The position numbers and the translations under genes were made by a program. From positions 9,238,001-9,302,000 of the forward strand of contig CM114271.1 in NCBI GenBank assembly GCA_050084515.1: a DNA stretch of 64,000 nucleotides, given 5' to 3'. The notes under the pieces were generated by a model. The model was not told where the DNA came from. It made no database searches and saw only the letters and a list, made by a program, of their open reading frames with translations. The stretch is from Blasia pusilla. Taxonomy: Eukaryota. Positions 39,751 to 63,234 of this stretch are shown here, piece by piece; within the stretch, counting starts at the first letter, position 1; every line of letters begins with the position of its first letter.

Positions 39751-40298
39751 AAGGATTCGAAAGTGGACATTAGCTCCAAACCCCTGAGGTGCGGTAAGAG
39801 GAGAGGGAGAGAGGAAGAGAGGAGAGGGCAGAGAGGAAACTACCTTCAACCGAAATAGATACTTTTTTTTTAAGAGAGTTTCCGTTGGGTTGAAGCGAGG
39901 AAACTTTTTGTGTGAGTTTTTTTGCACTTTTTTGTTCAGTTATTAAGTAGTCCCACAATTTTTTTTTCTCTTCCATATTTTGGCAACCCATCTGAGTCCG
40001 ACCGGTTGCAAATTGTACAAAATATACAAAACTGAAAAATCAATGGAATCATAAGTGTGGAACCAATCACTTTTTCCATCCAAGGTCTGGAAAAAATCTA
40101 TCATTTTCCCCGAGCTGAATAGAGTTCAAGCTCAAAGTGAATGTTCAGGAAAAATAAACTTAACCTAAAGTACTAAATCAAAGCTCAAATATGATAGCCA
40201 TAAAACAAAAATCCTTAAAATACATACTAGACAAAAAAAAGCTCAACCATTCCAATATATTAGACAAAAATTACAATCTAAAACCTCATTTTGCATCC

Positions 40299-42883
40299 TC
40301 AAAGTGGTTTGTTTAAAATACTTCGCACTTCTTTGAGGGACATAATTGGTTGGTGGATTCCTACTCCTACCTCCGACTCCCTTAAAACTACCAGCAACAC
40401 ATGGAACATGTGCTTAGAAGGGAAGTACCTTTTGCCACTTGTCTCTCTTTGGACAAAGTCATCACATGAACATGTGGGAAAGCAACAGATGTGTACCATA
40501 TACACCCCTGTGACACTTGAATTAACAGTGTTGTTCCTGACCCAATACATCCTTCCTATTCCATTGCCACTCAAGACATCTTTCGTGGCGATGATCTCCA
40601 TTTTTGCCTCCTAAGCTGATGCGATTCACTTTGCTCTCTCCACCGTTGGCCTACACATCCTAAACCCACCTACTGCAATCCGTCAGATTCAGACGGATTG
40701 CAAGGCCGAGGCATCCCATGAATGACTTTACTACCCATCGGTTTCCGTTGGGTTGCACACTCGGGCAACCCGTCGCATCCGACACCTTGCTTGGTTTCTT
40801 CGGTTTGAAATCCCTATAGTTCCCACGCTTCTCAACTTGAGCTGGAACTTTACAAACAATTCTCAATGTGAGCTTGAGAAGACAAAATAGTGAACTCACC
40901 TGCCGCATGAAGTTTCCCCATTGTCTCATACGTATAGTCCACCAACTCAACCAAGAGCACAACTCTTTGTACTTCCCCTCAATGGCATGCTTCCTCCACC
41001 ACCCATGAAGTTCTTCTTGGCATTCCATGGCCTGCTTCAAGGTTTTTCTGTCCTTGCAACGTTGGAGTAGAGTGACATGCTCTGTCCTCTTATTCTCCTT
41101 GATGCAAGATTTGGTGTACCGGTTCACAGACTGTTGCCAATGGAAAGCATCCGACTTTTCCCTCTCCGGCTGAACCTCTCCACCCCATAACGCTTCCCGG
41201 ATAGCAATCCACCCAGGTTGTGCATTGTCCGCCATGAACCCATAAATTTCCGGAGGTGGCCTTTTGTTTTCCTTCACCACCTCCAATAAGAGTAACCAGC
41301 ACATCTTCAAATTGCCAACGTCTTCTGCCTTTACTTCACAGACAAATATAGTTTTGAGTCCCTTCTCCACATGGTCATAAACGTGAGCACCCATCTTCAA
41401 CCATCCGTTCAGCACTCTGAAGCAAATATCAAAGCTTACCCAGCTCCTGTAAAGATCTTCCCCTTCCCTCATTCGATCTATAAGATCGAGGCCACTCGAC
41501 GGACCTGTGGTTGACATTTTGAAGACATAGGCCCTGGATCCCTCGCCTCCTTGGCCCATGAACTACCATCTCTGAATGAATGGAAATCTGGAGTTGGCCT
41601 TGATTCTGGCGATGGCATCCATTTTGGCCGTCTTTCCATCCAGAACACGTATTTGACGCAGCAAATTCCGGAAGCATTCAGGATCAGCGAGAAATGCGAG
41701 ATTTTCCCATAGTTTTTTCTCCTCAGCCGCCGTGATCTCGCTCTGTCCAGGGATTCCAAGCAATTGTTCACAAATTTGTGATGCCGTTGTGAGCTTGATC
41801 ACTCCAGGCTTTGAACTCGGAGAGTTTCTGTAGACCTCGACAACTTTCTTCGCCACATCCTCCTTGATGTCTCTCTGAATTGCATCGGTCACAGGATGAG
41901 TGTGGGAGCCAACATGAACTGCCAGCCTTGTGTACTCTGACGTGGAGCCCAAGTCGTGGACAATGAAAAATATGTATGCAGGACACGCTCCAACGCAGAA
42001 GGGCAATGCTTGACAATGAGGACATCGATGGCCTCCCGGCGGTATGGTGGCAACGACCTCGTATGGAGTTTATGCATTCTTAGGGGGGAATTGCAACGTA
42101 TTGACTCGCCCGTTGCGCTCTAGATACGGGCATGCTGGACTTCTACACTCCAAGGCTCCGACGCATTGGCGGCGGGAGACTAGTCCGTTGAAGCCTGCAC
42201 CATCGATGATAATCAGACTTTATGTCCATACCCTTCAGGCGTCCTCCATCTTTTTTTTGAGCAGGAGCAGCAAGTGGAGGCAACTCAAAAATGCAATTAC
42301 CATCGTACGTGGGCGGCAACTCGTCGACAAGAATGTGTTTGAAAATTTTCAAGGCCAGAGACAAAAGCAAACTATTGCCTGATACTCGCAAGAGGAACGA
42401 GTAGGCGGACAGAGGGCCCGGTTGGAGTCCGACAGATCCACTGAGGTTGATAACATCCGGAATCTCTTCAGGAAGAACAACATTGTTACGATCATGTGAA
42501 GTTGGAGTCGAGGCCGGATCTACTGAGCTAGGAGTTGCAAACGTAGAGCTCGGAGCACTAGGAAATTCTCGACCGTCTACTTGGGAAACAGACGAATTCA
42601 GGGGCAGGCCATAAACTCTGTATTGACCATTTGCTAGAGGTAGGAGATTCCATACTTTACAGTCTCCAGTCACTGGCTGGACTGTCTCACCTATTATGTC
42701 CTCCGTATTGTCCACCCTAACATCCTTTGATACAAAGATGGTTCCAATTTGGAGAAGAAATCGAACAGAGAGAAAATTTTCATCCACTGCTATGAAAGAC
42801 TCACGAGCTTACGGTTGAACGATTTGTGATTGAGGAAGGGCCGCCAGATGACTGCCACAAGTGAGCTTCATATAATTATCCAT
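40299..42883 (-). pseudogene. MULE-like DDE transposase with SWIM finger (most of exon 2 deleted)
   Basis: ATG 42883; VHVGSHTHPV; WVSFDIC (D1), GFMADNA (D2), SDAFHWQQ (CxxH-equivalent); SWIM-like CSCDDF...FPSKH at 40299-40601. Confidence 0.82.
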
Positions 42884-43124: not shown

Positions 43125-43815
43125 GTTGGAACCCGTCGGAGTCCTGGTAACTCAACAATTAACCCAAGCTACGCGAAGCCTGCAACCCGTCGGCTTCGGA
43201 CGGGTTGCACGCTTGTGCCTTACCTTCAAACGCAAACATGGTCGAAGTTGGCAACCCGTCGCTCTCCGACGATTTGCTCAGATACCGCTCCTTCTTGCCC
43301 GAAGATGGCGGAGGCTTGCAACCCGTCCGCATCAGACGGGTTGCCCAATTATCTCACGGTGTAACACTTACATGAAGGAAGCGTGCAAACCGTCTGTTCC
43401 CGACGAGTTCCACGGGTGCCGCACCTTCTTGCCCAAAGACGGCGAGGCGTGCAACCCGTCGCCCTCCGACGGGTTGCGCAAGGGCCTCACCTTGTTTTGC
43501 TTACATGAAGGAAGCGTGCAACCTGTCGGACTCCGACGAGTTGCGCGGAAAGCCCGCATTGTTAACCCTTGACGAGGGAAGCGTGCAACCCAACGGTCTC
43601 CAACAGGTTGCGCGGGTACGCCCCGTTCTTGTCCAAAGACGGCGGAGGCGCGCAACCTGTCGGTCTCCGACGGGTTGCGTGGGTTCCTCGTGGTCTTGTC
43701 CGAAGACGGCGGAGGCGCTCAACCTGTCGGTCTCCGACGGATTGCTCGTGCACCTCGCGTTATCTTTCTAGGACGGCGGAGGCACGCAACCTGTCGGACT
43801 CCGACGGGTTGCCAT
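43125..43815. repeat. Palindrome array (~67 bp period) in the divergent promoter region
   Basis: Units start near 43182, 43251, 43318, 43384, 43450, 43518, 43587, 43652, 43720 and 43786. Confidence 0.92.
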
Positions 43816-43901
43816 TTTTCACGTCCGGACTTCCGTAACGGCCGGCACGTCGCCGTCGAAAGGACGATGGGACCCAACGGTCAGCCCAACAGCTAGAAAA
43901 G

Positions 43902-43909
43902 TATAAATA
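43902..43909 (+). promoter_or_regulatory. TATA box of the ParB-MTase gene
   Basis: TATAAATA ~240 bp upstream of ATG 44141, conserved in the inverted copy at ~55251-55258. Confidence 0.55.
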
Positions 43910-45164
43910 GGGCAGAAATCACTCATTTCCGGTTTCTCATTTCAAGATCTCCATTCCTCTCCCGCGTAGTAGCTGATCAGATACCAAGGGGCGTTTCACA
44001 CAGCGAGTCATCGCGAGTCGATACGAGGGAACGAGAGCGAGACGGTTCGAGCTACCCATCAAGGCGACTCATCTCGACATCAGCAAGGCGATTGATCGAG
44101 CGATTCATCGTGGACATAGGTGGAGGCATTTCCGGGAAAAATGATGAGGAAAAAAGCTCAAGCAACTAAGTCTGGGAGCTTCACTCTGAAGTCCATTAGG
44201 ACTCCTGCGTCAGCATCTCCAGGGCCTCGTTCGGCAAATGAGATTAGGCAGCAGGAAATTGAGGAGCGGGAAAGGGAAGCGGAGATGCACAACCAGGAGC
44301 TTCTTGCGAGATGTGTACAAGAGGCGCTCGATAAACAGAACGCAGAGGTTGAGACGTCGCAGGCCATGAAGAAAAGGATCGCCGACGAAAAGAGAGAAAA
44401 GAAGCGTCTGGACGCGTGGGTGAGGAGAGCAGAATTGGCTAAAGCGAGGAGGGAAAAAGCGATAGCCATTGACGAAAACCCTGCCCGTCCAACCAAAAGT
44501 GTTGAGATGCGGGAAGTCCCCGATGAAGTCCCGGGACACAATCAACATAGCCGAAACACCAGAAGTTCAAATCACGGACGATGAGGTCATGAGGACCGCC
44601 AGCGTGGAGATGGTGGACATTGCCGAAGAAGCCGGAGAGCGGTCATTCTCGTCTCCAAGCCCGGAGGAAGAGATCGACCTCTATCAGATTGATGAGTTCC
44701 TAGTCGACTTGCCAACTGCTGTCTCAGACAAGTTGGTTGGTTGCGGACAATGGAATACGTCCGCGAAATTCAGTCCGACGAGGACATCGCCAAGTTAAAA
44801 CAATCGGTGGTGACAACATCCTACGTCGACAACTTCCCTCCCTTCTATGTTCAGCCTTACAACGAGCATGGAACCCAAGCCCTGGTTACGGAGGAGGACT
44901 TGGAAAAGCTCGACACATTCTGGAGGATGAGAGACCAGGATTTCAGAAGGCAAGTAGAGGGCACGGAATTCAGCTGGATGAGGAATCTACATTTCTTCAT
45001 CTGGGATGGAAATCACAGGTTCATGGCGTGGACCAAGTTTGCAGAGGAGCGGGCCAACTCCTTGGAGGCACATTTTTGCGTGAAGGCAGTGGTCCTTCAT
45101 CCATACCCTCATCACATGGCGACGGTGGAGATGGCCATGCATGCCATGAACACATAAGTATCTT

Positions 45165-45915
45165 CTTGCTGCAAACCGTCGGACTCCGACAAGTTGTTTG
45201 GGTCGCCACTGTTGTTGGGATGCTTTTGGCCAAACGCAACTCGTCGGAGTCCGACGAGTTGCTCGATTGATGAACGGGTTAGGTTGTTTTTTGCCGAAAG
45301 CAACTCTTCGGACTCCGACGAGTTGCTCGACTTGCCGCCTTTTCAGGATGTTTTTTGAAGAAAGCAACTCGTCGGACTCCGACGAGTTGTTCGACTGACC
45401 ACAGGTTTAGTATGTTTTTGGCCCAAAGGAATCCGTCGGAGTCCGACGGGTTGCTCGACTCGCCGCCTTTTCAGGATGTTTTTTGAAGAAAGCAACTCGT
45501 TGGACTCCGACGAGTTGTTTGACTGACCACATGTTAAGTATGTTTTTGGCCCAAAGCAACTCGTCGAAGTCCGACGGGTTGCTTGACTCGAAGCTGTTTG
45601 GAGGTTTTTTTTAATGTTTTTGGCCGAAAGCAACTCGTCGGAGTGCAACGAGTTGCATTGGGAAGTTGGTATTGCTAATTTCGCATCGAATTGCAGGTTT
45701 CCATTCAATTGCGCAACCTGTCGGACTCTGACGGGTTGCTATGTTCATGTTTGATACAGACTATCTGACAACCCGTCAGAGTCGGACGGGTTGAAACTAG
45801 GCATTCACAAATGTGAATGCAATCTGTCGCACTCCGACGGGTTGCATCATTTAGCTCGTTGCTAGAATCCGACCTTGAGCTGTGACGACCCGTCAGAGTC
45901 CGACGGGTTGCAGGA
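45165..45915. repeat. Intronic palindrome array (~55-70 bp period)
   Basis: About a dozen GCAACYCGTCGGASTCCGACGRGTTG units following the ParB exon. Confidence 0.92.
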
Positions 45916-48084
45916 ACCCATGTAACTTACAAATTTTGTGACGGGTTGAGTTAAGATGTGCAGGATTGTATCGGAGGGGAATGTCACCCACCACTGGATC
46001 CAGGACTGCGATCGGGTGAAGAAGGTGCTTACGACACACCCAGCAGAGTACAAGGGGTTCTTGGGCGACGCCTTGGTAAATCAGATGCTTGCAAAGGGTG
46101 CATAGATAAAAAAAGAAGACTTGGGCAAATAAGTTTATTTCCCAAGATGCAGCCGTAACAATCCTCTGCTGGTCGAAGATACAGGACGCGAAGAAGAGCG
46201 CTACACTGGAGCTAGAGCGGAGGGAGAAAGTATCTGGGTTTGAGCGCGCGAAATTCATCCAAGCTGCAGTATCTGCAGCCACAAAACACACGGCGACCAA
46301 GATGCAGCGCTACATCAGCATTCTCAACCCCGAACTTGGTCCGGAGTTTTGCAAGGAGCTGAAGGCGATTATCAAGCGCCAGCGGAAAAGGGATGAACAT
46401 CCGCAAGGTCAGATTGGGGAGAAAGTGTCCCTGGATCGCGTGCATCGGTTTGCGTTGGCCGGCATAAGCGAGTTTAGGAGGATCTGACTGATGAAAATGA
46501 GTCTCGAGGGCACAGAGGCCCAGAAGAGGGCGGCACATCATCCTCCGGGTGTGTCCGATCCAGTGATCTCCCACTGGCTCCGCGAATGGTCATTCTGGGA
46601 CGCGTTGCGGGTTATCGGGAAGTCCGTGCTAGACAGTCTGCAATCGGAGCTCAAAAGATTAGAGCCCATTCCGGATGAAGCAAACCAGGAAAGTTCTGTA
46701 GATTTCGAGGTTTGGCTCGATGACATATGGGACAAGCCAATCAAATACCCAGGATTCAAGACGATGTTCAAGCTTTGCGTCCTCCCTCAGGCAGAGCTTG
46801 ACGAAGAAATCGACGGGAACAAACGGGATCAAGCAAAGAAGAAGCGAGATCTTAAGGAGCAGGCGCCCGATTCAGTTCGAGTAAAAGCTGCCCAACGGAT
46901 GGTCTTCAGGTACCTCGTCCACTGTAAGAATGCAGGTACCTGGGGAAAATTACCGGCAGCCTTGAAATTGTGGGCTTCGCCGCCTCATGGAGAGACATTC
47001 TCCATGTACGACATGGAGATGGTGCAGCACATGTCCGATTGGGAGGTGGAGAATTGCCCAATTTGGCTTGAATTCAACGACCCTGAAGACATCATTATGC
47101 AGTGGCCTCAGGACGGGACAACATCCCCAATTTTGTGCAGCCTGAGGACTTCTTCGGAGGAGATGTGGAAGAGCAAGCCCTCGAGACAGCTGAGTTGGCT
47201 TCAAAGGTCCGCACAGCCAAAGACAAATCCACAGCGCGTCTCAAAGGCAAGGCGAGGGGAGGGAAGAATTTCGAGGCCGATTCTTCCCAAAGAGAGGCTG
47301 AAGATTCAACGCCAGAGGCGGAATCATCCGGACGAGCGGGGAGAGAGGGTCGGACCAGGTCCTCGGCAAAAAAAACCCCACCAGAGTCCGAGGTCATAGA
47401 GACCCCGACAAGCCGTGCGCAGACTCGGGAGAAGCGGAAGCAAGAGGTGCCAGTGTTGTCCCAAGGAGAATACAGTCCATCATCCTTGGGAAGACACAGA
47501 GAAACAATGACCCGGACAAGTGTCCTCCTATAGTTCACGAATTTACTGGATGAGCTGAAAAGCTTCAGTTCTCAAGCGTCGACACCCGCCATTAATAAAT
47601 TGACAACGCTGGGACGGAAGCTCCAACGAAACGGGCACGCTCCCTGAACGGTGAATGGAGTGGTCCAAGAGGTTGCGGTGGATCTCTTGATCGCTAATCT
47701 GCCCTCGGGGTTGCGACTGTGGGACAAGAATCCGTCGGACGGGGTACCTAACTGGAATGTTCCCCTCTCTTATGACCAAATCGCGCTATTGTTCTCCTTT
47801 GCAGACGCCTATCTGAGTGACAGGGGCTTCTTCTTAGTGTTGACTGGAGGGAGCGAGGATGAGCTTTTCAACCTCCAGTGCGTCAAGAGGTCGCTAAAGT
47901 GGAGGACGGCGCAATCGTGGATCATAAAAAATGAGTACCCACTCTGATCCGCGACAAGTCAAATTCGTGTAGTATAATCTCAAATATATATTCAAATTCC
48001 TGTAGTATAATCTCAAATATATATTCAAATTCGGGTTAGGCTCAATGCGTGTGAATTTCAGATAGTATATCTCCGTGGTTTTTG

Positions 48085-48395
48085 TCCGTGAGCAACCCGT
48101 CAGAAGGCGACGGGTTGCTGGCTTAGAGCAGCCCATGCTTGGCTAAGAGCAACCCGTCGGTTTCCGACGAGTTGCATCTCTCCCAGAAACATAGGGAAAA
48201 CCGTGGTGTAATTGCAACCCGTCGGAACCCGACGGGTTGCACTTCCTTTTGGTTTTTCCCTGTGTTTCCGGAAAGCTGAAACCCGTCGAAAAGCGACGGG
48301 TTGCTCTCACCCAAGCATGGGCTGCTCTAGGCCAGCAACCCGTCGCCTTCCGACAGGTTGGTCATGGAACCCGTCGAACTCCGACAGGTTGCTCC
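48085..48395. repeat. Intronic palindrome array between the MTase exons
   Basis: Same palindrome; homologous to 10440-10770 and 52280-52635. Confidence 0.9.
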
Positions 48396-49006
48396 AAAGT
48401 TAGTAATTAAAAAAGTTCTCTAGGGTCAAGCCGAGTTCTTTGGTGACGTGTTGCACATTATGCCAAGTTGTTGACATTCTTTCCAACGTGCTTCTTTACA
48501 GATGGACCACTCCTACGTTTACTGCTTCGTTCGGCCCGAGCACAATTTCCAGGTGTTCAAGATCTAGGATCCTGTGGATCCATGCTCAGATGGGTAGAGC
48601 TTAGATAGTTTTGTACAATTCCCCAGAATTTACATGCAAGATGGTACTCCACTTCTGGAAGGAAGGGAAAAGTCGCCAGCCCTATGTAAACGCTCATCAA
48701 GCTCTGCTCAAGGCCGGGTGACTTGGTATTGTGGCGGGCTTCTTAACTTTTGGCTCGTTCCCCTACACTCGTCAAACCTGTTGTAGGCTTCTTTTCTTGT
48801 CTAAGATGTGCAGGATTCCTACTACCTGTTGGATTGCCATTTCGGATTCCCAACCTGTTGGATTTTTGTGGATGATGGGTGGAAGGAAATCACTTCTAAA
48901 AATATTTCCTTTCTTATGGTGAGCTTTCTTACGGGTTGGGAGGGGTGCAGCTTCTAGGTTTCTCAGCTTTAGGATCTGAATGAAGGGACATCAGTTCCTC
49001 TTTATT

Positions 49007-49870
49007 GAGGTGCGGTAAGAGGAGAGGAAGAGAGGAAGAGGAGAGAGGAAAGAGGAAACTACCTTCAACCGAAATAGATACTTTTTTTTAAGAGAGTTTC
49101 CGTTGGGTTGAAGAGAGGAAACTTTTTGTGTGAATTTTTTTGCACTTTTTTGTTCATTTATTAAGCAGTCCCACAGTTTTTTTTCCTCTTCCATATTTTG
49201 GCAACCCCTCTGAGTCCGACGAGTTGCAAATTACACAAAATTTAGAAAACTGAAAAATCAGTGGAATCATAAGTGTGGAACCAATCACTTTTTCCATCCA
49301 AGGTCTGGAAAAAATCTATCATTTGCCCCGGGCTGAATAGAGTTCAAGCTCAAAGTGAAGGTTGAGGAAAAATAAAAGAACAATCTAAAACCTCATTTTG
49401 CATCCTCAAAGTGGTTTGTTTAAAATATGGTTGAAGGCTTCCACATACATTTTTTCATCACCAGATCTCACAGCCGCCTTGACATAGAGCTCGTAGATCA
49501 ACGGCCCCTTTCCTTTTGTTATGCCTTTTGTAAGGAAGATATGGGATGTTGCAGACTGTATTGCTCTTGCCTGGTCTTGTTGGCATGCCTCCACAAGTGA
49601 AATTCGTTGGCATGCTTGTGATGACCTCCAAGAGGAATAAACACTTTCTGCTCCACTTGTGTTGGGGTAGAGGGCATTTTCATGAACGTTCAATCCCTGC
49701 AACGATGGCAATGTTAGAAGGGAACAAAAATAACTCAGGAGTCAAAGCAATAAGCGACCTGTCGGAACCAGACGGGTTGCAGGCCCGAGGCATCCCAGGA
49801 ACGACTCTACGACCCGTCGGGTTGTAACCTTAAACCCACCTACTGCAAACCGTCGGAACCAGACGGGTTG
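49007..49870 (-). mobile_element. Element left end plus deleted transposase exon 2 and intron fragment
   Basis: GAGGTGCGGTAAGAGG at 49007; ORF 49406-49711 with YPNTSGAESVYSSW (candidate catalytic E). Confidence 0.8.
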
Positions 49871-50199
49871 CACACTCAGGGGGGGCTGGTATTCTGGCAG
49901 GAGAGAGTAAGAGAGGAGAGGAAGAGAGGAAGAGAGGAGAGTCTCTCTTAAAAAAAAAGGGCCAAATCCGCCTCCTCTCTTCAAAACTTTCTGACATATT
50001 TGAAATTTTTGTTTGCTTTCAAATCCATGAAATCTTTAGAAGAGAGTAGGTAGAATTTGGCCCTAAAAAAACCTCCTTTTTCCTTGGGGCAAAAAAAAAG
50101 TAGACATCATAAGACCACTACAAACATTTTTCCATCTCCTCATCTCGGTCAACAAAAAGCAGTGCCCTTGGTATTTTTGTTGGAGGACCACCTGGATGC

Positions 50200-50850
50200 C
50201 AACCCTAAGCATCTACTCCAAGGCATCTACTGCCTGAAATTTCTACCTCATCTACTTCTGAACCTGCCCTAACTAAAGCCTCTTGAGCAACATTGATGGC
50301 ATAGGCTCGACCTGTCTCTTGGACATGCTTGAAGGTGAGATCTACCTCTATATTCTTCCCATGCTTGCTTCTTCTCAATCTCGTTCGAGCCCCGTCCTCA
50401 GTTCACACCTCCACTTAGCTCCATCTACACAAATCTTCCAGAAATCACTCCTTGGATCTTCTCAACTCCATAGATCTCTCCCTTGGATTCTCAAGCTTTA
50501 TGGCCTTCAAATGAGGTCCTCTAGGCTTCCATGAGGAATCTTCTTGCCCACAAGAGTCCAAGCATTTGAGCTCAGCCTCCATTGACCTCTTCTTAGCCCC
50601 TTATTCTTCATTTCTTGGCCCTAACAATCAGATCCACCCCCTTGGTTCAAACCCTCCTCTACAACAGCAATCAAGCACTCTATCTCCTTCATTGGATACC
50701 CTGGAGACTCCCTAGTGCCTACACCATCTCCCTTGTCTCCTCTAGGCTTGAGGTCAATGGAGTGACTTGGCTGCATTATCACCTTGTACAATCTTCTTGA
50801 CTTGTTCTTGACGACTCTTCTTTGGGCCTTTCTCTTGCACCACCTCCACA
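50200..50850. other. Unrelated insert in the element's 3' region, possibly a retroelement fragment
   Basis: Not present in homologous 12150-13160; strongly pyrimidine-biased; no diagnostic motif. Confidence 0.4.
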
Positions 50851-50954
50851 AGTCCAAAAAACATATTCCAGAAAACTTTTACAAACACCATTATGGGTTC
50901 AAAAAATCTTGTCCTTTATTACCTCCGAAGGAACCTCGGAAATGTACATTGAAC

Positions 50955-53900
50955 CTAGTCTATGATTTCTTCAGCCTCGTCATCTACAAATTTACTCCTA
51001 ACTCTCCTCGGTGATAGTACCAAAGGAATGTCCTGGGATTCAAGTGGCTCCTCTGGCCGGTTGTAGACGGGGATCGAAAATGTTGGCAAATTCGAGAGCC
51101 TTGGCCCCCCCCTAGGTACACCATAACGGTCCCATGTAACCTGTCTCGAGTCCCACCGCCTTCCTCGGCAAGATACCTTGTACGCTCTACAATGTGACAC
51201 CCATCCAATATCAATATGTGCTCCGCCCCCGGTAATACCACTATGGCAACATGGGGTAGAAGGAATCCAACACCTCGAGAGAAGAAAAGAAGCCGCCTTT
51301 GCCTTTTACGAGTTGAGGGAAGGTGCCAAGGGAAGAAGCCCGCCATCGCTCGATCCAAAAGGGTCCGATCAGGCAACCTGTCGGAATCAGACAGGTTTCC
51401 TGGAGGTGGTAAAAAGGGTCCTGTGGTCAAAAAGCGAAAAGTTGCAAGGAGGAAAAATCCGACGGGTTGCAAAGTAGAAGACCGTGGAGTACATAGACGA
51501 TCACATTCGAAAAGACAAAATGATCACCAAACATTTACAAGCACCACCATCGATCGAAAAAATCTTCTGCTTTATATCATCCGAAAAAAGCTCGGAACTG
51601 TACATTTGATCTATTCTATGAAATCTTTTGCCAAATTATCAAAAAACTCCAAACGCTGCAGTCAAGCTGGGTCGTTGAGTTCTTTCAACTCACTCGTCAT
51701 CGTCCGAGAGCTCTTGCAAAATCACTTTCGGCCTTGCCCTCCCGATTTTGGGAATCGTTGGAAGTGACGATGGAGTCACTACCAAGGGTGGCTCTGGAAC
51801 CGGAGCTCTCGGCTTTGGTGGAGAGTTGTACGCCCCAACGAGCCTTTCAGATTCTCGCTTTGCCTCCTTGCAAAGGTCAAGCGATTCTGCCTTCCCTCGA
51901 GGCAGAGAATGTTCCTGCCACTATGCCAGACGCCTTTGATACTCGCCCCTGAAAGGCCCACTAAGTCGAACACCAAGTCACCCGGCCTTGAGCAGAGCTC
52001 GATGAGCGTTTGCATCAGGGTTGGCGACTTTTCCCTTCCTCCCAGAAGCGGGGTATTGTCTTGCATGTAAATTCCCGGGGGAGGGGGGGGGGGGGATTGT
52101 ACAAACTATCTAAGCTGTACCCATCTGAGCATGGATCCACAGGATCCTGGATCTTGAACACCTGGAAATTGTGCTCGGGCGAGCAAAGCACGAGGAGTGG
52201 TCCATCAGTAAATCAACACGAAACAATGTCGAAACTAAAGAAGTCGCCTTGAGAAGATTTTCAATAACTGACTTTGGATCAACTTGTCGGAGTCTGACGG
52301 GTTGTTTGTCCCGGACCCACCCGTCGGAACCCGACGGGTTGCAGTTGCTTTTGGGTTTTCCAAGTTGATTTTGGTTTTCGGATGCAACCCGTTGGAAGGC
52401 GACGGGTTGCTGGCCTCAGACCAGCCCATGCTCGCCGAGAGCAACCCGTCGCTATACGGGTTGCATCCGAAAACCAAAATCAACTGCAACCCGTCGGGTT
52501 CCGACGGGTTGCAGGTACACCATGGTTTTCCCTCTGTATGTGGGAAAGATGCAACCCGTCGGAAACCGACGGGTTGCTCTTAGCCGAGCATGGGCTGCTC
52601 TAAGCCAGCAACCCGTCGCCTTCCGACGGGTTGCTCACGGACAAAAAAAACCCAGACTGACTCTCATTCTACACATCATTATAAGATAATTGAAATTATT
52701 GTACAGGAATATAGCCTTACCCGAGTCTGACTCGTTGCAGATCGGAGTGGGTACTCGTTTTTTATGATCCATGATTGTGCCGTCCTCCACTTTAGCGACC
52801 TCTTGACGCACTGGAGGTTGAAGAGCTCGTCCTCGCTCCCTCCATCCAACACCAAGAAGCAGCCCCTGTCACACTCGGATAGGGCGTCGCAAAGGAGAAC
52901 AAAAGTGCAATCTGGTCATAAGTGAGCGGCACATTCCACTCAGGTACCTCGTCCGCCGGATTTTCGCCCCAAAGTCGCAACCCCGAGGGCAGATCGGCGA
53001 TCAAGAGATCCACCGCAACCTCTTCCATGACTCCATTCACCATCCAGGCAGCGTGCCCGTTTTGTTGGAGCTTCCTTCCCAGCGTTGTCAATTTTTCGAT
53101 GGTAGTTGTCGACGCTGAGAATCAAGTCGTTCACTCATCCAAGAAAGAGGTGAATCGAAGGAGGACGCTTGTCCGGGTCATTGTTTGTCTGTGTCTTCCC
53201 AAGGATGGTGGGCTTTATTCTCCTTGGGACAACCCGGGCACCTCTCGCTTCCGCTTCTCTCAAGTCTGGGGACGGCTTGTCGGGGTTTCGATGACCTCGG
53301 ATTTTGGTGGCGTTTTCTTCGCCGAGGACCTGGTCCGACCCTCTCTTCCCGCTCGTCCGGACGATTCCGCCTCTGGCCTCTCATCTTCAGGCTCTCTTTG
53401 GGAAGTCTCGGCCTTTGAATTTTTCCCTCCCTCGCCTTGCCTTTGAGACCATTTGTGGATTTTTCTTTGGTGTCCGGACCTTTGAAGCCAACTCACTATC
53501 TCGTGGGCTGCTCTTCTGCATCTCCTCCAGAAGAAGTCTTCAGCCGGACGAAATTGGGGATGTCGTCTTGTCCGAGGCCACCTTTGCATCATGAAGCACT
53601 CGTAAGTCCTTATCCGTGATGTCTTGTGGTCGTTGAAGTCGAGCCAAATGGGGCAATTCTCCACCTCCCAATCCGACATGTGCTGACCCATCTCCACGTC
53701 GTACATGGAGAATGTCTCTGCATCCGGCGGCGAAGCCCACAATTTCAAGGCTATCGGAAATTTTCCCCACGTACCTGCGTTCTTACACTGGACGAGGTAT
53801 CTGAATACCATCCGTTTGGCAGCTTTTAGTCAAACATTATCGGCCGTCTGCTCCTGTAGATCTCGCTTCTTCTTCGCTTGATCCCGTTTGTTACCCTCTA

Positions 53901-54553
53901 CTTCTTCGTCAAGCTTTGCCTGAGGGAGGACGCAAACCTTGAACATGGTCTTGAATCCAGGGTTCTTGGTTGGCTTGTCCCGGATGTCGTCAAGCCAAAC
54001 CTCGTAATCTCCAGAACTTTCAAGGTTTGCTTCCGGCGGAATGGGCTCTAATCTTCTGAGCTCCGCTTGCAGACCGTCCAGCACGGACTTCTCGATTACC
54101 CGCAACGCGTCCCAAAACGACCATTCGCGTAGCCAATGCACGATCACTGGATCGGACACACCTGGAGGATGGTGTGCCGCCCTCTTCTGGGCCTCTGAGC
54201 CCTCGAGACTGATTTTCATCAGTCGTATCCTCCTGAACTCGCTAATCCCGGATAACGCAAAACAATGCACGCGATCCAGCGACACTTTCTCCCCAATCCG
54301 ACCATGCGGATCTTCATCCCTCTTCCGCTGACGCTTGATAATCGCCTTGAGCTCCTTGTAGAACTCCGGACCAAGTTCGAGGTTGAGAATGCTGATGTAT
54401 CGCTGCATCTTGCTCGCCGTGTATTTTGTTGCAGCAGATACAGCAGCTTGGATGAATTTGGCGTGCTCAGACGCAGATACCTTCTCCCTCCGCTCGGCTC
54501 GGTCTGGCGCTTTTTCTTTGACTGTATCTTCGACCAGCAAAGGATGGTTACGG
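50955..54553 (-). pseudogene. ParB-MTase gene, central and 3' exons (52721-54553, 51694-52205, 50955-51186)
   Basis: AVDLLIADLPSG; donor CGG|GTAAG at 52721/52720; GREKSPTLMQTLIELCSRPGDLVFDLVGLSGASIKGVWHSGRNILCLEG; terminal RSKFVDDEAEEIID*. Confidence 0.75.
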
Positions 54554-54579
54554 CTGCATCTTGAGAACAACATGTTTGG

Positions 54580-54903
54580 TGTCGTCCCGGGTGTGCAACC
54601 ATTCGGGACCCGACGGGTCACAGAGTCGTTCATGGGATGCCTCGGCCTTGCAACCCGTCGGGTTCTGACGGGTTGCAATAGGTGGGTTTAAGGTTACAAC
54701 ACGTCGGGTCTGTGGGACTGCTTAATATATGAACAAAAAAGTGCAAAAAAATTCAAACAAAAATTTTCCTCTCTTCAACCCAACGGAAACTCTCTTCAAA
54801 AAAAAAATCTATTTCGGTTGAAGGTAGTTTTCTCTCTCCTCTCTCCTCTCTTCCTCTCTCCTCTCTCCTCTCTTCCTCTCTTCCTCTCCTCTTACCGCAC
54901 CTC
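54580..54903 (-). mobile_element. Small inverted left-end fragment joined to transposase-intron DNA
   Basis: ...CTCTTACCGCACCTC ends at 54903 and abuts the first codons of the ParB gene (minus). Confidence 0.75.
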
Positions 54904-55344
54904 CTGTCCTAATGGACTTCGGAGTGAAGCTCCCAGACTTGTTGGCTTGAGATTTTTTCCTCGTCATTTTTTCCAGAAATGCCTCCATCTATGTCCACGA
55001 TGAATCCCTTGATCAGTCCACTTGCTGATGTCGAGATGAGTCACCTTGATGGGTAGCTCGAATCGTCTCGCAATTGTTCAGTCGAACCGTCTCGCTCTCG
55101 TTCGGTCGAACCGTCCCGCACTCGTTCCCTCCTATCGACTCGCGATGACTCGCCGTGTGAAACGCCCCTTGGTATCTGATCAGTTGCTGCGCGGGAGAGT
55201 GAGGAATGGAGATCGTGAAATGAGAAACCAAAAATGAGCAATTTCTGCCCTATTTATACTTTTCTAGCCGTTGGGCTGACCGTTGGGTCGCGTCGTCTGT
55301 TCGACGGTGACGTGCCAGAGGTTACACAAGTCCGGAGGTGAAAA

Positions 55345-55945
55345 ATGGCAACCCGTCGGATCCGACAGGTTCCGCTGTGCGCCTCTGCCATCCTGGGTAC
55401 GTTGCCATGTGCGCAAGCAACCCGTCGGAGACCGACGGGTTGAGCGCCTCTGTCGTCTTTGGACCAGAACCCGAGGTACCCGCGCAACCCGTCGGAGACC
55501 GACATGTTGCGCGCCTCCGCCGTGTTTAGGATAGGAACGGGACGTACCCAGGAAATCCGTCGGAGACCGTTGGGTTCCATGCTTCCCTCGTCAAGGGTTA
55601 AGAACGCGGGGTTCCCGTGCAAGTCGTCGGAGTTCGACTGGTTGCACACTTCATGTAAGCACCACAAGGCGAGGCCCTTGCGCAACACGTTGGAGGGCGA
55701 CGGGTTGCACGCCTCGCCGTCTTTGGGCAAATAGGTGCGGAACTCGTCGGGAACAGACGGTATGCACACCTCCGGCATCTTTGGGCAAGAAGGATCGGTA
55801 TCCGAACAACTCGTCGGAGAGCGACGGGTTGCCCGCTTTGACCATGTTTGGCAAAAGGGTGCAACCTGTCCGAAGCCGACGGGTTGCAGGCTTCGGTTAG
55901 CTTGTGGTAATTTTTGAGTTACCAGGACTCCGACGGGTTCCAGCA
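55345..55945. repeat. Palindrome array, inverted copy of the divergent promoter region
   Basis: Reverse-complement homolog of 43125-43815. Confidence 0.9.
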
Positions 55946-56179
55946 AAATGAAGTGTGCTTCGCAACCCTCTGCTTCCCAAATCCGGTAACACATTGCAAT
56001 AGAATTGAGTCTGTTGTTACATAATTGGATCCATTGTGTCAGACAATGTCACCTACCGAATTCATCTTGTCAGTAAAAATCTGTCAGGAGTATCTGTTTT
56101 CCTATTCACTATAAATTAAACATTCTCATTCATATTCTCTTTCTCATTCTCACCCTCTTCCCATACAAACTTTCACGGA

Positions 56180-58202
56180 ATGGATAATTATGTTAAGCTC
56201 ACTTGTGGCAGCCATCTGGCGGCCCTTCCTCAATCAGAAATCATTCGACCCGAAGCTCGTGAGTCTTTCATAGCAGTGGATGAAAATTTTCTGTCTGTTC
56301 GATTTCTTCTCCAAATTGGAACCATCTTTGTATCCAAAGATGTTAGGGTGGACGGTACGGAAGACATAATAGGTGAGACGGTCCAGTCAGTGACCTCACA
56401 CCGTAAAGTATGGAATCTTCTACCTATAGCAAATGGTCAATACAGAGTTTACGGCCTGCCCCTGAATTCGTATGTTTCCCAAGTAGACGGTCTAGAATTT
56501 CCTAGTGCTCCGAGCTCTACGTTTGCAACTCCAAGCTTTGCAGATCCGGCTTCGACTCCAACTTCGCACGCTCGTAACAATGTTGTTCTTTCTGCAGAGA
56601 TTCCGGATGTAATCAACCTCAGTGGATCTGTCGAACATCAATCGGGCCCTCTATCCGCCTACTCGAAATCACGAAATATCACGAAATATCACGAAATAGT
56701 TTGCTTTCGTCTCTGGCCTTGAAAATGTTCAAGCACATTCTTGTCGACAAGCTGCCGCCCACCTACGATGGTAATTGCATTTTTGAGTTGCCTCCACTTG
56801 CGGCTCCTGCTCAAAAGAAGGATGGAGGACGCCTGAAGGGTATGGACAGAAAGTCTGATTGTCATCGATGGTGCAGGCTTCAACGGACTAGTGCTTCAAT
56901 TCTAGATGGTCCTTGGATTGTCTCCCACCGCCAATGCGTGGGAGCCTTGGAGTGTAGAAGTCCAGCATGCCCGTATCTAGAGCGCATCGGGCGAGTCAAT
57001 ACGTCGCAATTCTCTCCCAAGCATGCAGAAACTCCATACGAGGTCGATGCCACCATACCGACGGGAGGCCATTGATGTCCTCATTGTCAAGCATCGCCCT
57101 TCTGCGTTGGAGCATGTCCTCCATACATATTTTTCGTTGTCCATGACTTGGGCTCCACGTTAGATTACACAAGGCTGACAGTTCATGTTGGCTCCCACAC
57201 TCATCCTGTGTCCGATGCAATTCAAAGACACATCAAGGAGGATGTGGCTGAGAAAGTTTCCGAGGTCTACAGAAACTCTCCGGGTTCAAATCCCGGAGTG
57301 ATCAAGCTCACAACGACATCGCAAATTTGTGAATAATTGCTTGGAATCCCTGGACAGGGCGAGATCACGGCGGTTGAGGAGAAACAACTCTGGGAAAATC
57401 TCGCATTTCTCGCTGATCCTGAATGCTTACGGAATTTGCTGCTTCAAATACATTTTCTGCATGGAAAGACGGCCGAAATGGATGCCATCGCCCGAATCAA
57501 GGCCAACTCTAGATTTCCATTCATTCAGAGATGGCAATTCATGGGCCAAGGAGGCGAGGGATCTAGGGCCTATGTCTTCAAAATATCAACCACATGTCGG
57601 TCGAGTGGCCTCGATCTTATAGATCGAATGAGGGAAGGGGAAGATCTTTACGGGAGCTGGGTAAGCTTTGATATTTGCTACAGAGTGCTGAAGGATGGTT
57701 GACGATGGGTGCTCACGTTTATGACCATGTGGAGAAGGGACTCAAAACTATATTTATCTGTGAAGTAAAAGCGTAAGACGCGTTGGCGGTTTGAAGATGT
57801 CTTTGGTTACTCTTATTGGAGGTGGTGAAGGAAAACAAAAGGCCACCTCCGGAAATTTATGGGTTCATGGCGGACAATGCACAACCTGGGTGGATTGCTA
57901 TCCGGGAAGTGTTCTGGGGTGGAGAGGTTCAACCGGAGAGGGAAAAGTCGGATGCTTTCCATTGGCAACAGTCTGTGACCCGGTACACCAAATCTTGCAT
58001 CAAGGAGAATAAGAGGACAGAGCATGTCACTCTACTCCAACGTTGCAAGGACAACAAAACCTTCAAGCAAGCCATGGAATGCCAGAAAGAACTTCATGGG
58101 TGGTGGAGGAAGCATGCGATTGAGAGGAAGTACAAAGAGTTGTGCTCTTGGTTGAGTTGGTGGACTGTATGTATGAGACAATGGGGAAACTTCATGCGGT
58201 AG
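56180..58202 (+). pseudogene. MULE-like transposase exon 1 (frameshifted)
   Basis: MDNYVKLTCGSH..., RQCVGALECRSPACPYLE...VHVGSHTHPV, WVSFDIC, GFMADNA, SDAFHW; donor GTGAGT at ~58203. Confidence 0.82.
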
Positions 58203-58400
58203 GTGAGTTCACTATTTTGTCTTGTCAAGCTCACGCTGAGAATTGTTTGTAAAGTTGTAGCTCAGGGTGAGAAGCGTGGGAACTATATGGATTTCAAACA
58301 CAAGAAACCAAGCAAGCTGTCGGATGCGACGGGTTGCCCGAGTGTGCAACCCAACGAAACCGACGGGTTGCATCCAGATTTTTGGTGCAACCTGAGTGTG

Positions 58401-61400
58401 GAGGTGTGGTAAGAAGAGAGGAAGAGAGGAGAGAGGAGAGAGGAAACTACCTTCAACCGAAATAGATACTTTTTTTTAAGAGAGTTTCCGTTGGGTTGAA
58501 GAGAGGAAACTTTTTGTGTGAATATTTTTGCCTTTGCTTTTGTTCATTTATTAAACAATCCCCGCTTTATTTTCCTCTTCCATATTTTGGCAACCCCAGT
58601 GAGTCCGACGAGTGGCAAATTGCACAAAATTTAGAAAACTGAAAAATCAGTGGAATCATAAGTGTGGAACCAATCACTTTTTCCATCCAAGGTCTGGAAA
58701 AAATCTATCATTTGCCCCGGGCTGAATAGAGTTCAAGCTCAAAGTGAAGGTTGAGGAAAAATAAAAGTACAATCTAAAACCTCATTTTGCATCCTCAAAG
58801 TGGTTTGTTTAAAATACTTCGCAGTTCTTTGAGGGAGATAATTGGTTGGTGGATTCCTACTCCTACCTCCGACTCTCTTAAAACTACTAGCAACACATAG
58901 TACATGTGCTTACAAGGGAAATACCTTTTGCCACTTGTCTCTCTTTGGACAAAGTCATCACATGAACATGTGGGAAAGCAACAAATGTGCACCACATACA
59001 CCCCTGTGACACTTGAATTTGAGTGTTGTTCTGACCCAATACATCCTTCCTATTCCATTGCCACTCAAGACATCTTTCGTGGCGATGATCTCCATTTTTG
59101 CCTCCCGAGCTTATTGCATTCGCTTTGCTCTCTCCACCGTTGGCCTGCACATTCTGTTTCTCTTCACCCCATTTCTAGACTCAAACAGAAATAATGGATT
59201 GAGATCATCCACCTTCTCCGGGTACATGTTGACATCAATCTTGGGTTGAATACAAAATGCGAAGGTCTCTGTAATGCTGAACATGCTCCAAACTTCCCCG
59301 TCTCTGAGTGCGAAACCGACACTTGTAAGATTGTCCACTTCGTCTTGAGTGTAGTTCGTGCCTGCGGCGATGGGCCAAATCGTGGGGGTATTCCCGGGAG
59401 CTCCAATGGCAGCCGGACAAGACTTCCGGAAAGCGAAATATTCATTTGGGCAGAAGAAGTACTTCAATTGATCCCTGGTCCTCGTGAAACGATCAAAGGT
59501 TTTGAGTCCCGAAAACCCAGGCAGAGGTCGTCCAGTCCTTGTACAGTTCTTATTTAGGAAAGTGCCGCATGCTCTCCTAATGCCATCAGATCCTGCCCTG
59601 TAGGTGGGTCCACGTCCTGGGTTGCTCCGAGATAAATGCCACCGTTTTAGGTTGCAATCCACCTCCATTACCGGAATCCCATATTGTTGAACCACCCGAG
59701 TGACAGGATGTTGCGAACTTCCAGCAACGGAGGGCTTTTGAAATAAAACATTCATTGATTTTGGAGAAGTAACTCCATCACGGATTTGGGACGGGTCTGG
59801 GGTCCCCGAATACCTGGGCGGTGTAATGTCCTCATCCAAATCAATCACCGGATTTGTTCCTCGATGCTGCCTCTTCACCTGCCTGAAGTCAAGATACTTA
59901 TATGGTCTCCACGAGTCTTGTTCGGACTGCTCTACCACCATCTGTATGGGACATCTTGAAACCCGCCCACAAATATCCCCACCTATGTGTATGTCTTGCT
60001 CGAGTGGAATTCCAGCTACGCACCGGTTGAAGGCTTCCACATACCGTTTTTCATCACCAGATCTCACTGCCGCCCTGACATAGAGCTCGTATATCGACGG
60101 CCCTTTTCCTTTTGTTATGCCTTTTGTGAGAAAGATATGGGATGCTACAGACTGTAGCATTGCTCTTGCCTGGTCTTGTTGGCATGCCTCCACAAGTGAA
60201 ATTCGTTGGCATGCTTGAGACGACGTCCAGGAGGAATGAACACTTTTTGCTCCACTTGTGTTGGGGCAGAGGGCATTTTCATGAACGTTCAGTCCCTGCA
60301 ATGACGGAAATGTTAGAAGGGAACGAAAATAACTCAGGAGTCAAAGAAATAAGCGACCTGTCGGAACCAGACGGGTTGCAGGCCCGAGGCATCCCATTAA
60401 TGACTCTGCGACTCGTCGGGTCCCGACGTGTTGTAACCTTAAACCCACCTACTGCAACCCGTGGGAACCCGACGGGTTGCAAGGCCGAGGCATCCCATGA
60501 ACGACTCTGTAACCTGTTGGGTCCCGACGGGTTGCACACTCGAGTTGCACCAAACATCTGGATGCAACTCGTTGGTTTCCGTTGGGTTGCACACTCGGGC
60601 AACCTATCGCATCCGACAGCTTGCTTGGTTTCTTGGGTTTGAAATCCATATAATTCCCACGCTTCTCACCCTGAGCTACAACTTTACAAACAATTCTCAG
60701 TGTGAGCTTGACAAGACAAAATAGTGAACTCACCTGCCGCATGAAGTTTCCCCATTCTCTCATACGTACAGTCCACCAACTCAACCAAGAGCACAACTCT
60801 TTGTACTTCCCCTCAATCGCATGCTTCCTCCACCACCCATGAAGGTCTTCTTTGCATTCCATGGCCTGCTTCAAGGTTTTGCTGTCCTTGCAGCGTTGGA
60901 GTAGAGTGACATTCTCTGTCCTCTTATTCTCCTTGATGCAAGATTTGGTGTACCAGGTCACAGACTGTTGCCAATGGAAAGCATCCGACTTTTCCCTCTC
61001 CGATTGAACCTCTCCACCCCATAACACTTCCCGGATAGCAATCCACCCAGGTTGTGCATTGTCCGCCATGAACCCATAAATTTCCGGAGGTGGCCTTTTG
61101 TTTTCCTTCACCACCTCCAATAAGAGTAACCAACACATCTTCAAACTGCCAACGTCTTCTGCCTTTACTTCACAGACAAATATAGTTTTGAGTCCCTTCT
61201 CCACATGGTCATAAACGTGAGCACCCATCTTCAACCATCCGTTCAGCACTCTGAAGCAAATATCAAAGCTTACCCAGCTCCCGTAAAGATCTTCCCCTTC
61301 CCTCATTCGATCTATAAGATCGAGGCCACTCGACGGACCTGTGGTTGACATTTTGAAGATATAGGCCTTGGATCCCTCGCCTCCTTGGCCCATGAACTGC

Positions 61401-61475
61401 CATCTCTGAATGAATGGAAATATGGAGTTGGCCTTGATTCTGGCGATGGCATCCATTTCGGCCGTCTTTCTTCCT
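58401..61475 (-). mobile_element. Element left end plus 3' two-thirds of the transposase (exon 1 part 60734-61475, intron 60296-60733, exon 2 58795-60295)
   Basis: GAGGTGTGGTAAG at 58401; CAG|GTGAGT and TTGCAG|GGA splice sites join FMRQ to GLNVHENALCPNTSGAKSVHSSW; SWIM CSCDDF-x-FPCKH at 58795-59001. Confidence 0.85.
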
Positions 61476-61476
61476 C

Positions 61477-62325
61477 ACAAAAGGCATAACAAAAGGAAAG
61501 GGGCCGTCGATCTACGAGCTCTATGTCAGGGCGGCTGTGAGATCTGGTGATGAAAAAATGTATGTGGAAGCCTTCAACCGGTGCGTAGCTGGAACTCCAC
61601 TCGAGCAAGACGTACACATTGGTGGGGATATTGGTGGGCTGGTTTCAAGACGTCCCATACAGATGGTGGTAGAGCAGTCCGAGCGAGACTCGTGGAGACC
61701 AGATAAGTATCTTGACTTCAAGCAAGTGAAGAGGCATCATCAAGGAACAAATCCGGTGATTGATTTGGATGAGGAAATTACACCGCCCAGGTATTCAGGG
61801 ACCCCGGACCCGTCCCAAATCCGTGATGGAGTTACTTCTCCAAAATCAGTGAATGTTTTATTTCAAAAGACCTCCGTTGCTAGAAGTTCGCAACATCCTG
61901 TCACTCGGGTGGTTCAACAATATGGGATTCCGGTAATGGAGGTGGATTGCAACCTAAAACGGTGGCATATATCTCAGAGCAACCCTGGACGTGGACCCAC
62001 CTGTAGGGCAGGATCTGATGGCATTAGGAGAGCATGCGGCACTTTCCTAAATAAGAACTGTAGAAGGAGTGGACGACCACTGCCTGGGTTTTGGGGACTC
62101 AAAACCTTTGATCGTTTCACGAGGACTAGGGATCAATTGAAGTTCTTCTTCTGCCCAAATGAATATTGCGCTTTCCGGAAGTCTTATCCGGCTGCCATTG
62201 GAGCTCCCGAGAATACCCCCACGATTTGGCCCATCGCCGCAGGCACGAACTGCACTCAAGACGAAGTGGACAATCTTACAAGTGCCGGTTTCAGACTCGT
62301 AGACGGGGGAAGTTTGGAGCATGTT
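61477..62325 (+). pseudogene. Inverted duplicate of part of transposase exon 2
   Basis: Reverse complement of ~59280-60128; Cys cluster CRAG...CGTF...FCPNEYC. Confidence 0.8.
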
Positions 62326-62334
62326 TACAAGTTA

Positions 62335-63218: not shown

Positions 63219-63234
63219 GTGAGTATCTTTAACA

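Follow-up and report, generated by a model that had tools for sequence, protein, structure and literature searches.

What becomes of a DNA methyltransferase (MTase) gene that is carried on a repeat element and no longer has the canonical residues of its catalytic motifs? The question is raised by a 64,000-nucleotide stretch of the Blasia pusilla genome (GenBank assembly GCA_050084515.1, contig CM114271.1, forward-strand positions 9,238,001 to 9,302,000; hereafter the window), in which one long repeat is present in at least five copies (A to E). A preliminary description had read two peptide blocks of copy A, lying on either side of a palindrome-filled intron, as a transposon-borne beta-class amino-MTase with non-canonical motifs. 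The answer that we favour, at somewhat better than even confidence, is that a transposon-like element has left decayed copies in the window and that its accessory gene encodes, at the C terminus, a methylase-derived domain, kept by selection and probably binding DNA without catalysis. An open reading frame (ORF) survey characterized the window as eukaryote-like and repeat-rich, with fragments of long terminal repeat (LTR) and long interspersed nuclear element (LINE) reverse transcriptases, and found no prokaryotic gene structure anywhere in its 64 kb.

The argument begins with the C-terminal block of the encoded protein, which lies in exon 2 of the gene and is preserved to different degrees in four copies:

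51896–52039, minus strand: motif X–I–II/III block of copy A, inside ORF 51779–52105, corresponding to about positions 163–217 of the PF01555 profile.
10953–11189, plus strand: exon 2 block of copy B, with a frameshift after the glycine loop.
16375–16921, plus strand: exon 2 of copy C (motif-I block 16505–16921), with a poly-C frame change, one in-frame stop and VGLSW for VGLSG, a glycine-to-tryptophan change.
48605–48731, plus strand: exon 2 remnant of copy D, frameshifted, with only the first ~25 residues of the block before the truncation.

The block had been described as conserved in all four; it is complete in copy A only. We compared seven motif-I fragments (copies A, B and C and the database fragments P0002–P0005) with Pfam, and in six of them PF01555 was the only MTase family matched (E = 1.8e-4 to 0.17; P0005 gave no match), always on profile positions 163–217 of 221. 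A profile of the fragment family returned five sequences from the PDB at E ≤ 10, and all five are adenine DNA MTases (5hek and 5hfj, both 'DpnA', M.MboIIA and two M.RsrI entries; best E = 0.0011). When 50,697 phage records were searched by tblastn, 233 weak matches resulted. Among the 30 that were listed, the gene is annotated as a DNA methylase or methyltransferase in 25, and no function is annotated in the other five. Alignment by hhalign to seven phage MTases reached 96% probability (E = 4e-9, 59 columns), blastp of copy A against the database protein P0007 gave E = 7e-9, with P0007 itself scoring 157.7 bits on PF01555, and an independent library, PHROGs, returned 'DNA methyltransferase' families at E = 1e-5 and 4.9e-5. 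Taken together, these comparisons show homology between the C-terminal block and the S-adenosylmethionine (AdoMet)-binding half (motifs X, I and II/III, then a terminal helix) of PF01555 beta-type N6-adenine/N4-cytosine (N6A/N4C) MTases. This half stands at the C terminus of the protein, as in permuted beta-class enzymes, including the prokaryotic and phage PF01555 enzymes M.RsrI, M.MboIIA, 5hek/5hfj and phage N15 gp52. By this evidence, the C-terminal domain is a descendant of a prokaryotic or phage PF01555-type (beta-order) N6A/N4C DNA MTase. The proposed beta-class domain was thus recovered in its C-terminal half, whereas exon 1, the presumed catalytic half, has no significant similarity to any methylase.

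Where the block sits in a gene becomes clear from the following features of copies A and D:

52720–53121, minus strand: exon 1 of copy A (presumed catalytic half), from ORFs 52792–53121 and 52679–52915 and a three-frame comparison with copy D.
52981–53013, minus strand: DLPS segment VDLLIADLPSG of copy A, inside the stop-to-stop ORF 52792–53121; a hydrophobic strand followed by DLPS.
52206–52719, minus strand: intron of copy A, 514 nt, GT–AG type, phase 0, with about six 25-bp palindromes.
51690–52205, minus strand: exon 2 of copy A through the stop codon (51690–51692); its C-terminal tail and stop are common to copies B and C.
47576–47947, plus strand: exon 1 of copy D, with one in-frame stop (47645–47647) followed by 99 uninterrupted codons (47648–47947); motif NLPS.
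53260–54687, minus strand: middle part of the gene in copy A, ORFs of 285 and 189 amino acids parted by a stop.
46188–47425, plus strand: the equivalent middle part in copy D.

Translation of the ORFs places both peptide blocks of copy A on the minus strand, separated, as had been proposed, by a palindrome-bearing intron. The donor reads CGG/GTAAGG in copy A (52720/52719) and has GT in copy D. The acceptor consists of a pyrimidine tract and then TTTACAG/ in copies C and D, TAG/ in copy B and CTG/ in copy A, in which the AG has mutated to TG. Both exon junctions are in phase 0, so that the splice would be in frame, and the exons are conserved while the intron sequence differs between copy pairs. 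In these respects the intervening sequence behaves as a true GT–AG intron. Exon 1 of copy A is split over two frames by a frameshift near 52886, as the comparison with copy D indicates, and three lesions interrupt exon 2: an indel near 52170, a frame-shifting poly-C tract at 52085–52105 and a frameshift near 51880. The poly-C tract (13 C, T, 5 C in copy A; about 16520–16535 in copy C) is absent from copies B and D and is possibly a derived homopolymer expansion or an assembly error. Both exons are larger than first drawn: exon 2 of copy A starts at 52205, ~165 nt upstream of the block in the preliminary description, and exon 1 of copy D extends well past it. An acidic C-terminal tail and the stop codon are common to copies A, B and C. 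On this anatomy, the interval first described covers the final two exons of a longer gene. The region would be the 3′ portion of an accessory gene, long and with introns, that belongs to a multi-copy, transposon-like DNA element. The middle ORFs matched no Pfam family, and a middle ORF of 303 amino acids found no relatives in a word-indexed protein search.

The core motifs of the domain are altered. The motif I columns that read D-P/F-F-x-G-S-G in the phage enzymes read D-L-V-G-L-S-G in copies A and B, so that the stacking phenylalanine and the first glycine are both replaced; the glycine loop is VGLSG in A and B and VGLSW in C, against a canonical F-x-G-x-G in seven of seven phage enzymes. 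In exon 1, the presumed motif IV is DLPS in copy A and NLPS in copy D, with only LPS common to the two, and it lacks an aromatic residue and a second proline. The variants had been reported as shared between copies, which is correct for VGLSG (A, B and nearly C) and incorrect for DLPS, which is found in A only. Strand 2 still ends in its acidic residue, which in canonical enzymes binds the ribose of AdoMet. Because motif IV has no aromatic residue or second proline and the motif I phenylalanine and first glycine are replaced, we consider that methyl transfer by the domain has most likely been lost.

These motif states also bear on whether the gene could encode a working N6A/N4C DNA MTase with unusual motifs, of which intact copies elsewhere would methylate the element's own DNA, for example its CG-rich palindromes. 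Purifying selection on both exons (see below) would fit such an enzyme, as would the retained PGD..V.D strand and strand-2 acidic residue and the variant motif IV (DIPY) of P0007, a true PF01555 protein that is close to the family in its C-terminal half; published accessory proteins of algal transposons that combine ParB-like and MTase domains are, moreover, predicted to be enzymes (PMC12477816). We nevertheless regard an active enzyme as distinctly unlikely, given a presumed motif IV that lacks its aromatic residue and second proline and varies in its first residue (D in A, N in D), a motif I without its phenylalanine and first glycine, a glycine loop that is unconserved in distant relatives, and a coding strand on which the canonical (D/N/S)PP(Y/F/W) is conserved nowhere. 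An alternative motif IV was considered and rejected: the SPPH at 46977 in copy D is SPPD in A, is lost in C and lies ~400 residues before motif I.

Distant relatives of the family were sought in 1.84 billion protein representatives and 5.8 billion clusters. An exhaustive HMMER search of the representatives with exon 2 produced four matches, three of them real; the top match, P0001, was discarded as a low-complexity artefact, being a 1449-amino-acid tandem-repeat protein with 21 matching stretches. An exon-2 profile in a word-indexed search returned P0006 and P0007 only. P0002–P0006 are unnamed short fragments, and the family alignment is very shallow. All five keep the PGD..V.D strand, as well as the strand-2 acidic residue wherever that part is present, and none has a conserved glycine loop. 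Because the distant relatives also lack that loop, the motif degeneracy looks family-wide and old. A scan of viral loci gave 16 pattern matches and no relative, and a metagenome scan from a single protein yielded 18 prokaryote-like methylase loci, which were chosen by one exact peptide pattern and are not a measure of closeness. Judged by these searches, public protein collections contain almost no members of the family, which marks it as unsampled diversity.

We then asked whether the domain had evolved neutrally, using the Nei–Gojobori ratio of non-synonymous to synonymous divergence (dN/dS) between copies. Exon 1 gave 0.41 for A versus D (p = 0.005), and exon 2 gave 0.28 for A versus B (p = 0.0015) and 0.62 for A versus C (p = 0.056; this comparison includes the out-of-frame tail in A). 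Pooling the two methylase-like exons gave p = 4.6e-5. Other parts of the gene behaved similarly: the middle ORF had a dN/dS of 0.28 (p = 7e-9), and the ratio was 0.27 for D versus E (p = 0.004) in a DGNHR-motif ORF that lies further upstream. Because dN/dS is below 1 in both methylase-like exons, the copy lineages are, on these ratios, judged to have been under protein-level constraint before each copy decayed. The check for neutral evolution proposed at the outset thus came out in favour of constraint, in agreement with the earlier view that the motif variants are not plain decay. Purifying selection despite replaced core motifs points to a binding role and not a catalytic one, and the domain has probably been retained as a DNA-recognition or scaffold module.

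The gene is repeated with the element. Self-comparison of the 64-kb window placed the copies as follows:

About 50845–56000, minus strand: copy A.
10365–12632, plus strand: copy B, 5′-truncated at about 10365, near the intron start.
15043–18176, plus strand: copy C, with exon 1 deleted.
43377–48731, plus strand: copy D, truncated at 48731.
From ~61.4 kb to the window end, plus strand: copy E.

The copies are 75–90% identical in DNA; with this identity and the significant protein-level conservation, the pattern is beyond chance. Their truncation points differ, they occur in both orientations and they are interspersed with other repeats, and only A and D retain exon 1. In these features the gene looks like part of a multi-copy element resembling a DNA transposon. 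The claim that the gene is transposon-borne accordingly stands as to the multi-copy repeat element and falls short as to a transposase; none of the neighbouring ORFs could be placed in a transposase family. All five window copies contain stops or frameshifts and are pseudogenes, and taken alone these dead copies would be ordinary repeat debris.

Such debris could be a functionless relic, either a host or viral gene fragment carried passively in the manner of Pack-MULEs or a segmentally duplicated cluster of pseudogenes. The damage in all five copies would be expected of a relic, and it would sit well with the want of a transposase family in Pfam and with the three real matches among so many protein representatives. 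The relic reading has to contend, however, with a dN/dS that is significantly less than 1 for each part of the gene that was compared, both methylase-like exons included; with an intron that is in phase and has conserved splice signals; with a reading frame, C-terminal tail and stop common to A, B and C; and with copies whose truncation points and orientations vary and which are scattered among other repeats. We consider it highly improbable, and the least weighty of three rivals to the selected, DNA-binding domain that we favour; the active enzyme ranks above it, and the third, a half-domain remnant taken up below, ranks above both.

The element also carries palindromes, a further upstream ORF and a set of ORFs divergent from the gene:

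43427–43812 (copy D) and 55417–55576 (copy A), strand not applicable: palindrome array of 67-bp period upstream of the gene, from the half-site scan.
45177–45590 (copy D) and 63281–63633 (copy E), strand not applicable: palindrome array of 64-bp period between the DGNHR ORF and the next coding block, from the half-site scan.
44696–45157 (copy D) and 62743–63222 (copy E), plus strand: the DGNHR-motif ORF upstream of the methylase-like part of the gene, 92% identical between D and E and deleted in A.
40660–42808 (copy D), 55756–58368 (copy A), 13160–14724 (copy C) and 60574–61470 (copy E, also delimited as 60449–61474), on the minus strand in D and E: conserved ORFs divergent from the gene, from self-comparison.

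The palindrome is CG-rich and 25 bp long, with 11-nt arms and a 3-nt spacer. Its 11-nt half-site occurs 129 times at no more than one mismatch, against 0.62 expected, and all occurrences lie inside element copies; they cluster at 10448–18211 and 39998–63834, with none between 18.2 and 40.0 kb. The palindromes of the methylase intron are less regularly spaced than those of the arrays. We regard the 25-bp palindrome as a candidate protein-binding site or MITE (miniature inverted-repeat transposable element)-like module. The DGNHR motif of the upstream ORF is, we assume, reminiscent of ParB/Srx domains. As a lead from a protein language-model atlas, its look-alike cluster includes ParB_N in 11% of members (score 0.94); the other named look-alikes are fungal DUF3723 and phage DUF6551, and the best Pfam match is a weak one to DUF1015 (E = 0.01 and 0.055). 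An AlphaFold2 model of this ORF was unusable (predicted local distance difference test (pLDDT) 37.5). We infer that the DGNHR ORF and the methylase-like exons belong to one gene, given that copies D and E agree in the order and orientation of their parts. The divergent ORFs may be the element's transposase: they contain a putative DDE-like pattern, and their sole Pfam match is a non-significant one to DDE_Tnp_ISL3 (E = 0.44), with nothing relevant in the PDB.

Under the reading that we favour, the methylase-derived domain, together with a possible ParB-like N-terminal domain, would bind the element's own palindrome arrays. Such binding would, for example, mark, tether or protect the element, a role like that proposed for the ParB-domain accessory proteins of algal transposons; by this analogy, the palindromes would be the ligand of the accessory protein. 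A bolder form of the model, which we rate as very unlikely as a whole, is a ParB/parS-like system of self-recognition in a eukaryotic DNA transposon. A single protein with a ParB-type domain and a pseudo-enzyme reader would load on the palindrome arrays in the promoter region and introns and would tether the element, insulate it or shield it from host silencing, and the loss of the catalytic motifs would be ancestral and selected in a lineage that is almost unsampled.

Several results weigh against the reading that we favour. For the C-terminal block, the PF01555 scores are all below the gathering threshold of 26.7 bits (A, 17.7 bits, E = 0.0037; B, 16.2; C, 14.0), so that the profile comparison proposed in the preliminary description yielded sub-threshold matches for exon 2 and none for exon 1. 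With methylase hidden Markov models (HMMs), the top three places among the 1,676 window ORFs go to the exon-2 ORFs of A, B and C, a ranking that is partly circular and only supportive, the profile sequences having been picked for similarity to the block. The loss of methyl-transfer activity, which we hold to be most likely, is read from motifs only, and with the strand-2 acidic residue in place, a nucleotide cofactor could still be bound. In the selection analysis, dS (0.35–0.58) exceeds the divergence of the introns in their BLAST-alignable parts (0.17–0.19), and CpG decay may therefore inflate dS. None of the five copies in the window is intact. The assignment of the DGNHR ORF as possibly a ParB/Srx-like domain comes from a short motif and a language-model lead; a PDB profile search, PHROGs and NCBIfam returned nothing for this ORF, and hhalign against two ParB_N domains gave a probability of 0.1%. 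Pfam and PDB searches placed none of the ORFs next to the gene in a transposase family.

A further point concerns exon 1, whose segment VDLLIADLPSG had been put forward as motif IV and found no statistical support in Pfam, PDB, PHROGs, NCBIfam, tblastn, hhalign or hmmsearch comparisons. Exon 1 matched nothing in Pfam, PHROGs or NCBIfam; a PDB profile search gave 24 matches at E = 0.41–1.1, all to dioxygenases; and tblastn against phages gave six at E ≥ 0.9, none of them a methylase. Hhalign against the phage MTases gave a probability of 0.3%, and blastp against P0007 gave E = 4.5. With a broader methylase HMM (hmmsearch over the 1,676 ORFs), exon 1 ranked 30th in copy A (E = 42) and 532nd in copy D, and its AlphaFold2 model was unusable (pLDDT 40.3). 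A word-indexed protein search for exon 1 likewise found no relatives.

With every homology test of exon 1 negative, and a pattern of hydrophobic strand and D.P. short enough to arise by chance, it is conceivable that only the AdoMet-binding half is methylase-derived, that exon 1 is unrelated and that the protein carries a truncated methylase remnant. We think this unlikely, on several grounds. Exon 1 lies directly upstream of the motif-I half, exactly where the beta order requires the catalytic half, and the ~165 residues between the presumed motif IV and motif I, by our reading of the frames, are within the range of small phage MTases. The one weak alignment, the non-significant hmmsearch match of copy A (E = 42), places the DLPS segment on the motif IV columns. 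All named look-alikes of exon 1 in the language-model atlas, which are leads only, are AdoMet-dependent MTase families (UPF0020, MTS, N6_N4_Mtase and Eco57I; scores 0.83–0.89), and all of these families carry a (D/N)PP(Y/F) motif. Selection on exon 1 is, finally, similar to that on exon 2. We therefore think it rather probable that exon 1 is a strongly diverged catalytic half with DLPS or NLPS in place of (D/N/S)PP(Y/F/W), an assignment of motif IV that we infer from position and pattern only.

How does an element of this kind compare with known systems? The nearest counterparts are in algae. Sola1-1_Ec32, a 21.5-kb giant DNA transposon of Ectocarpus, is described as encoding a ParB-like and N4C/N6A DNA MTase accessory protein opposite its transposase, and the ParB-domain accessory proteins of algal transposons are proposed to bind and mark the element's own DNA (PMC12477816). 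The Blasia element resembles Sola1-1_Ec32 in having a long protein of prokaryotic-type domains, with an N4C/N6A-type methylase domain, on a multi-copy DNA element, in the divergent arrangement of this gene and a conserved neighbour, and in the role proposed, binding or marking its own DNA. It differs in its non-canonical motifs, its decayed copies and the putative status of its ParB-like domain and transposase, the comparison being one of descriptions and not of sequences. In red algae, the account of the Plavaka elements of Bostrychia describes PAG2 as an N6A methylase with a SET domain and PAG3 as ParB with a 2-oxoglutarate oxygenase, and it reports tandem arrays of inverted repeats adjoining the ParB-domain gene and mostly degenerate copies (10.1101/2025.02.11.637652). 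The Blasia window likewise has tandem inverted-repeat arrays beside a gene whose ParB-type domain is putative, and mostly degenerate copies. Whereas methylase and ParB are in different proteins with other partners in Plavaka, one gene seems to hold both here.

Fusions of ParB_N and PF01555 also occur in prokaryote-like contigs, for example at the metagenomic loci L023 and L025. The Blasia domain departs from the canonical PF01555 enzymes, with their (D/S)PP(Y/F) and F-x-G-x-G motifs, in its DLPS/NLPS and VGLSG, its introns and its sub-threshold Pfam score. Two eukaryotic precedents had been named in the preliminary description, and both are in the literature: bdelloid N4CMT is described as a domesticated bacterial-type amino-MTase (PMC8885841) and Marchantia DN4MT1 as a domesticated PF01555 enzyme. 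Like these, as they are described, the Blasia gene has a bacterial-type permuted amino-MTase, with introns, in a eukaryotic genome. Unlike these single- or low-copy host genes, for which N4-methylcytosine activity is described as demonstrated or inferred, it is repeat-borne and degenerate, and the transposon-borne ParB and methylase genes of algae are closer to it. Bdelloid N4CMT and Marchantia DN4MT1 reportedly have intact motifs.

Loss of catalysis has a parallel in a retroelement. The methylase-like domain of DIRS1 is described as inactive through substitutions of catalytic and substrate-binding residues, with a binding role proposed, and the same source derives a haptophyte MTase clade from phage ParB–terminase loci (Iyer et al. 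2016, PMC4738411). The Blasia domain, too, is transposon-borne, amino-MTase-derived and judged inactive by substitutions. The DIRS1 domain, as described there, is PCIF1/M.EcoKI–M.TaqI-like and part of a retrotransposon polyprotein, whereas the Blasia domain belongs to another MTase group and to an accessory gene of a DNA element. The Dam-type domains of LTR and DIRS retrotransposons are described as keeping an NPP motif (10.64898/2026.05.21.726589) and belong to another family and another class of element than the Blasia domain. In our searches of the literature on PF01555/N6_N4_Mtase and transposable elements, no eukaryotic DNA element turned up that was described as having a PF01555 domain with degenerate motifs, although supplements may hold cases.

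Other features lie around the element copies. Two ORFs in inverted orientation, 59111–60340 (minus strand, 409 amino acids) and 61438–62742 (plus strand, 434 amino acids), are ~95% identical and have no family match; the pair belongs to another repeat unit that flanks the copies and is also present at 39785–40658 and 49007–49872. ORFs judged by eye to be LTR-retrotransposon reverse-transcriptase/gag-like or LINE-like reverse-transcriptase sequences lie on the minus strand at 1–948, 3799–5133 and 22052–23173. On the plus strand, ORF 38915–39625, which adjoins the repeat cluster, encodes part of a protein kinase domain (PF07714, E = 5e-9). Sequencing runs that partly match 50845–54567, in copy A, include several labelled 'air metagenome' besides runs of the source organism, with shares of 0.13–0.36 from which no habitat can be inferred.

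Transposon-borne DNA-modification genes show how mobile elements handle host epigenetic control. The accessory genes of algal giant transposons that combine ParB and methylase domains were noticed only recently (2025), and none has yet been tested. To these the Blasia family adds a case in which the core motifs of a methylase appear replaced and yet the domain seems to have been under purifying selection. It also offers a concrete candidate ligand for such a domain, a 25-bp palindrome that is arrayed only within the element.

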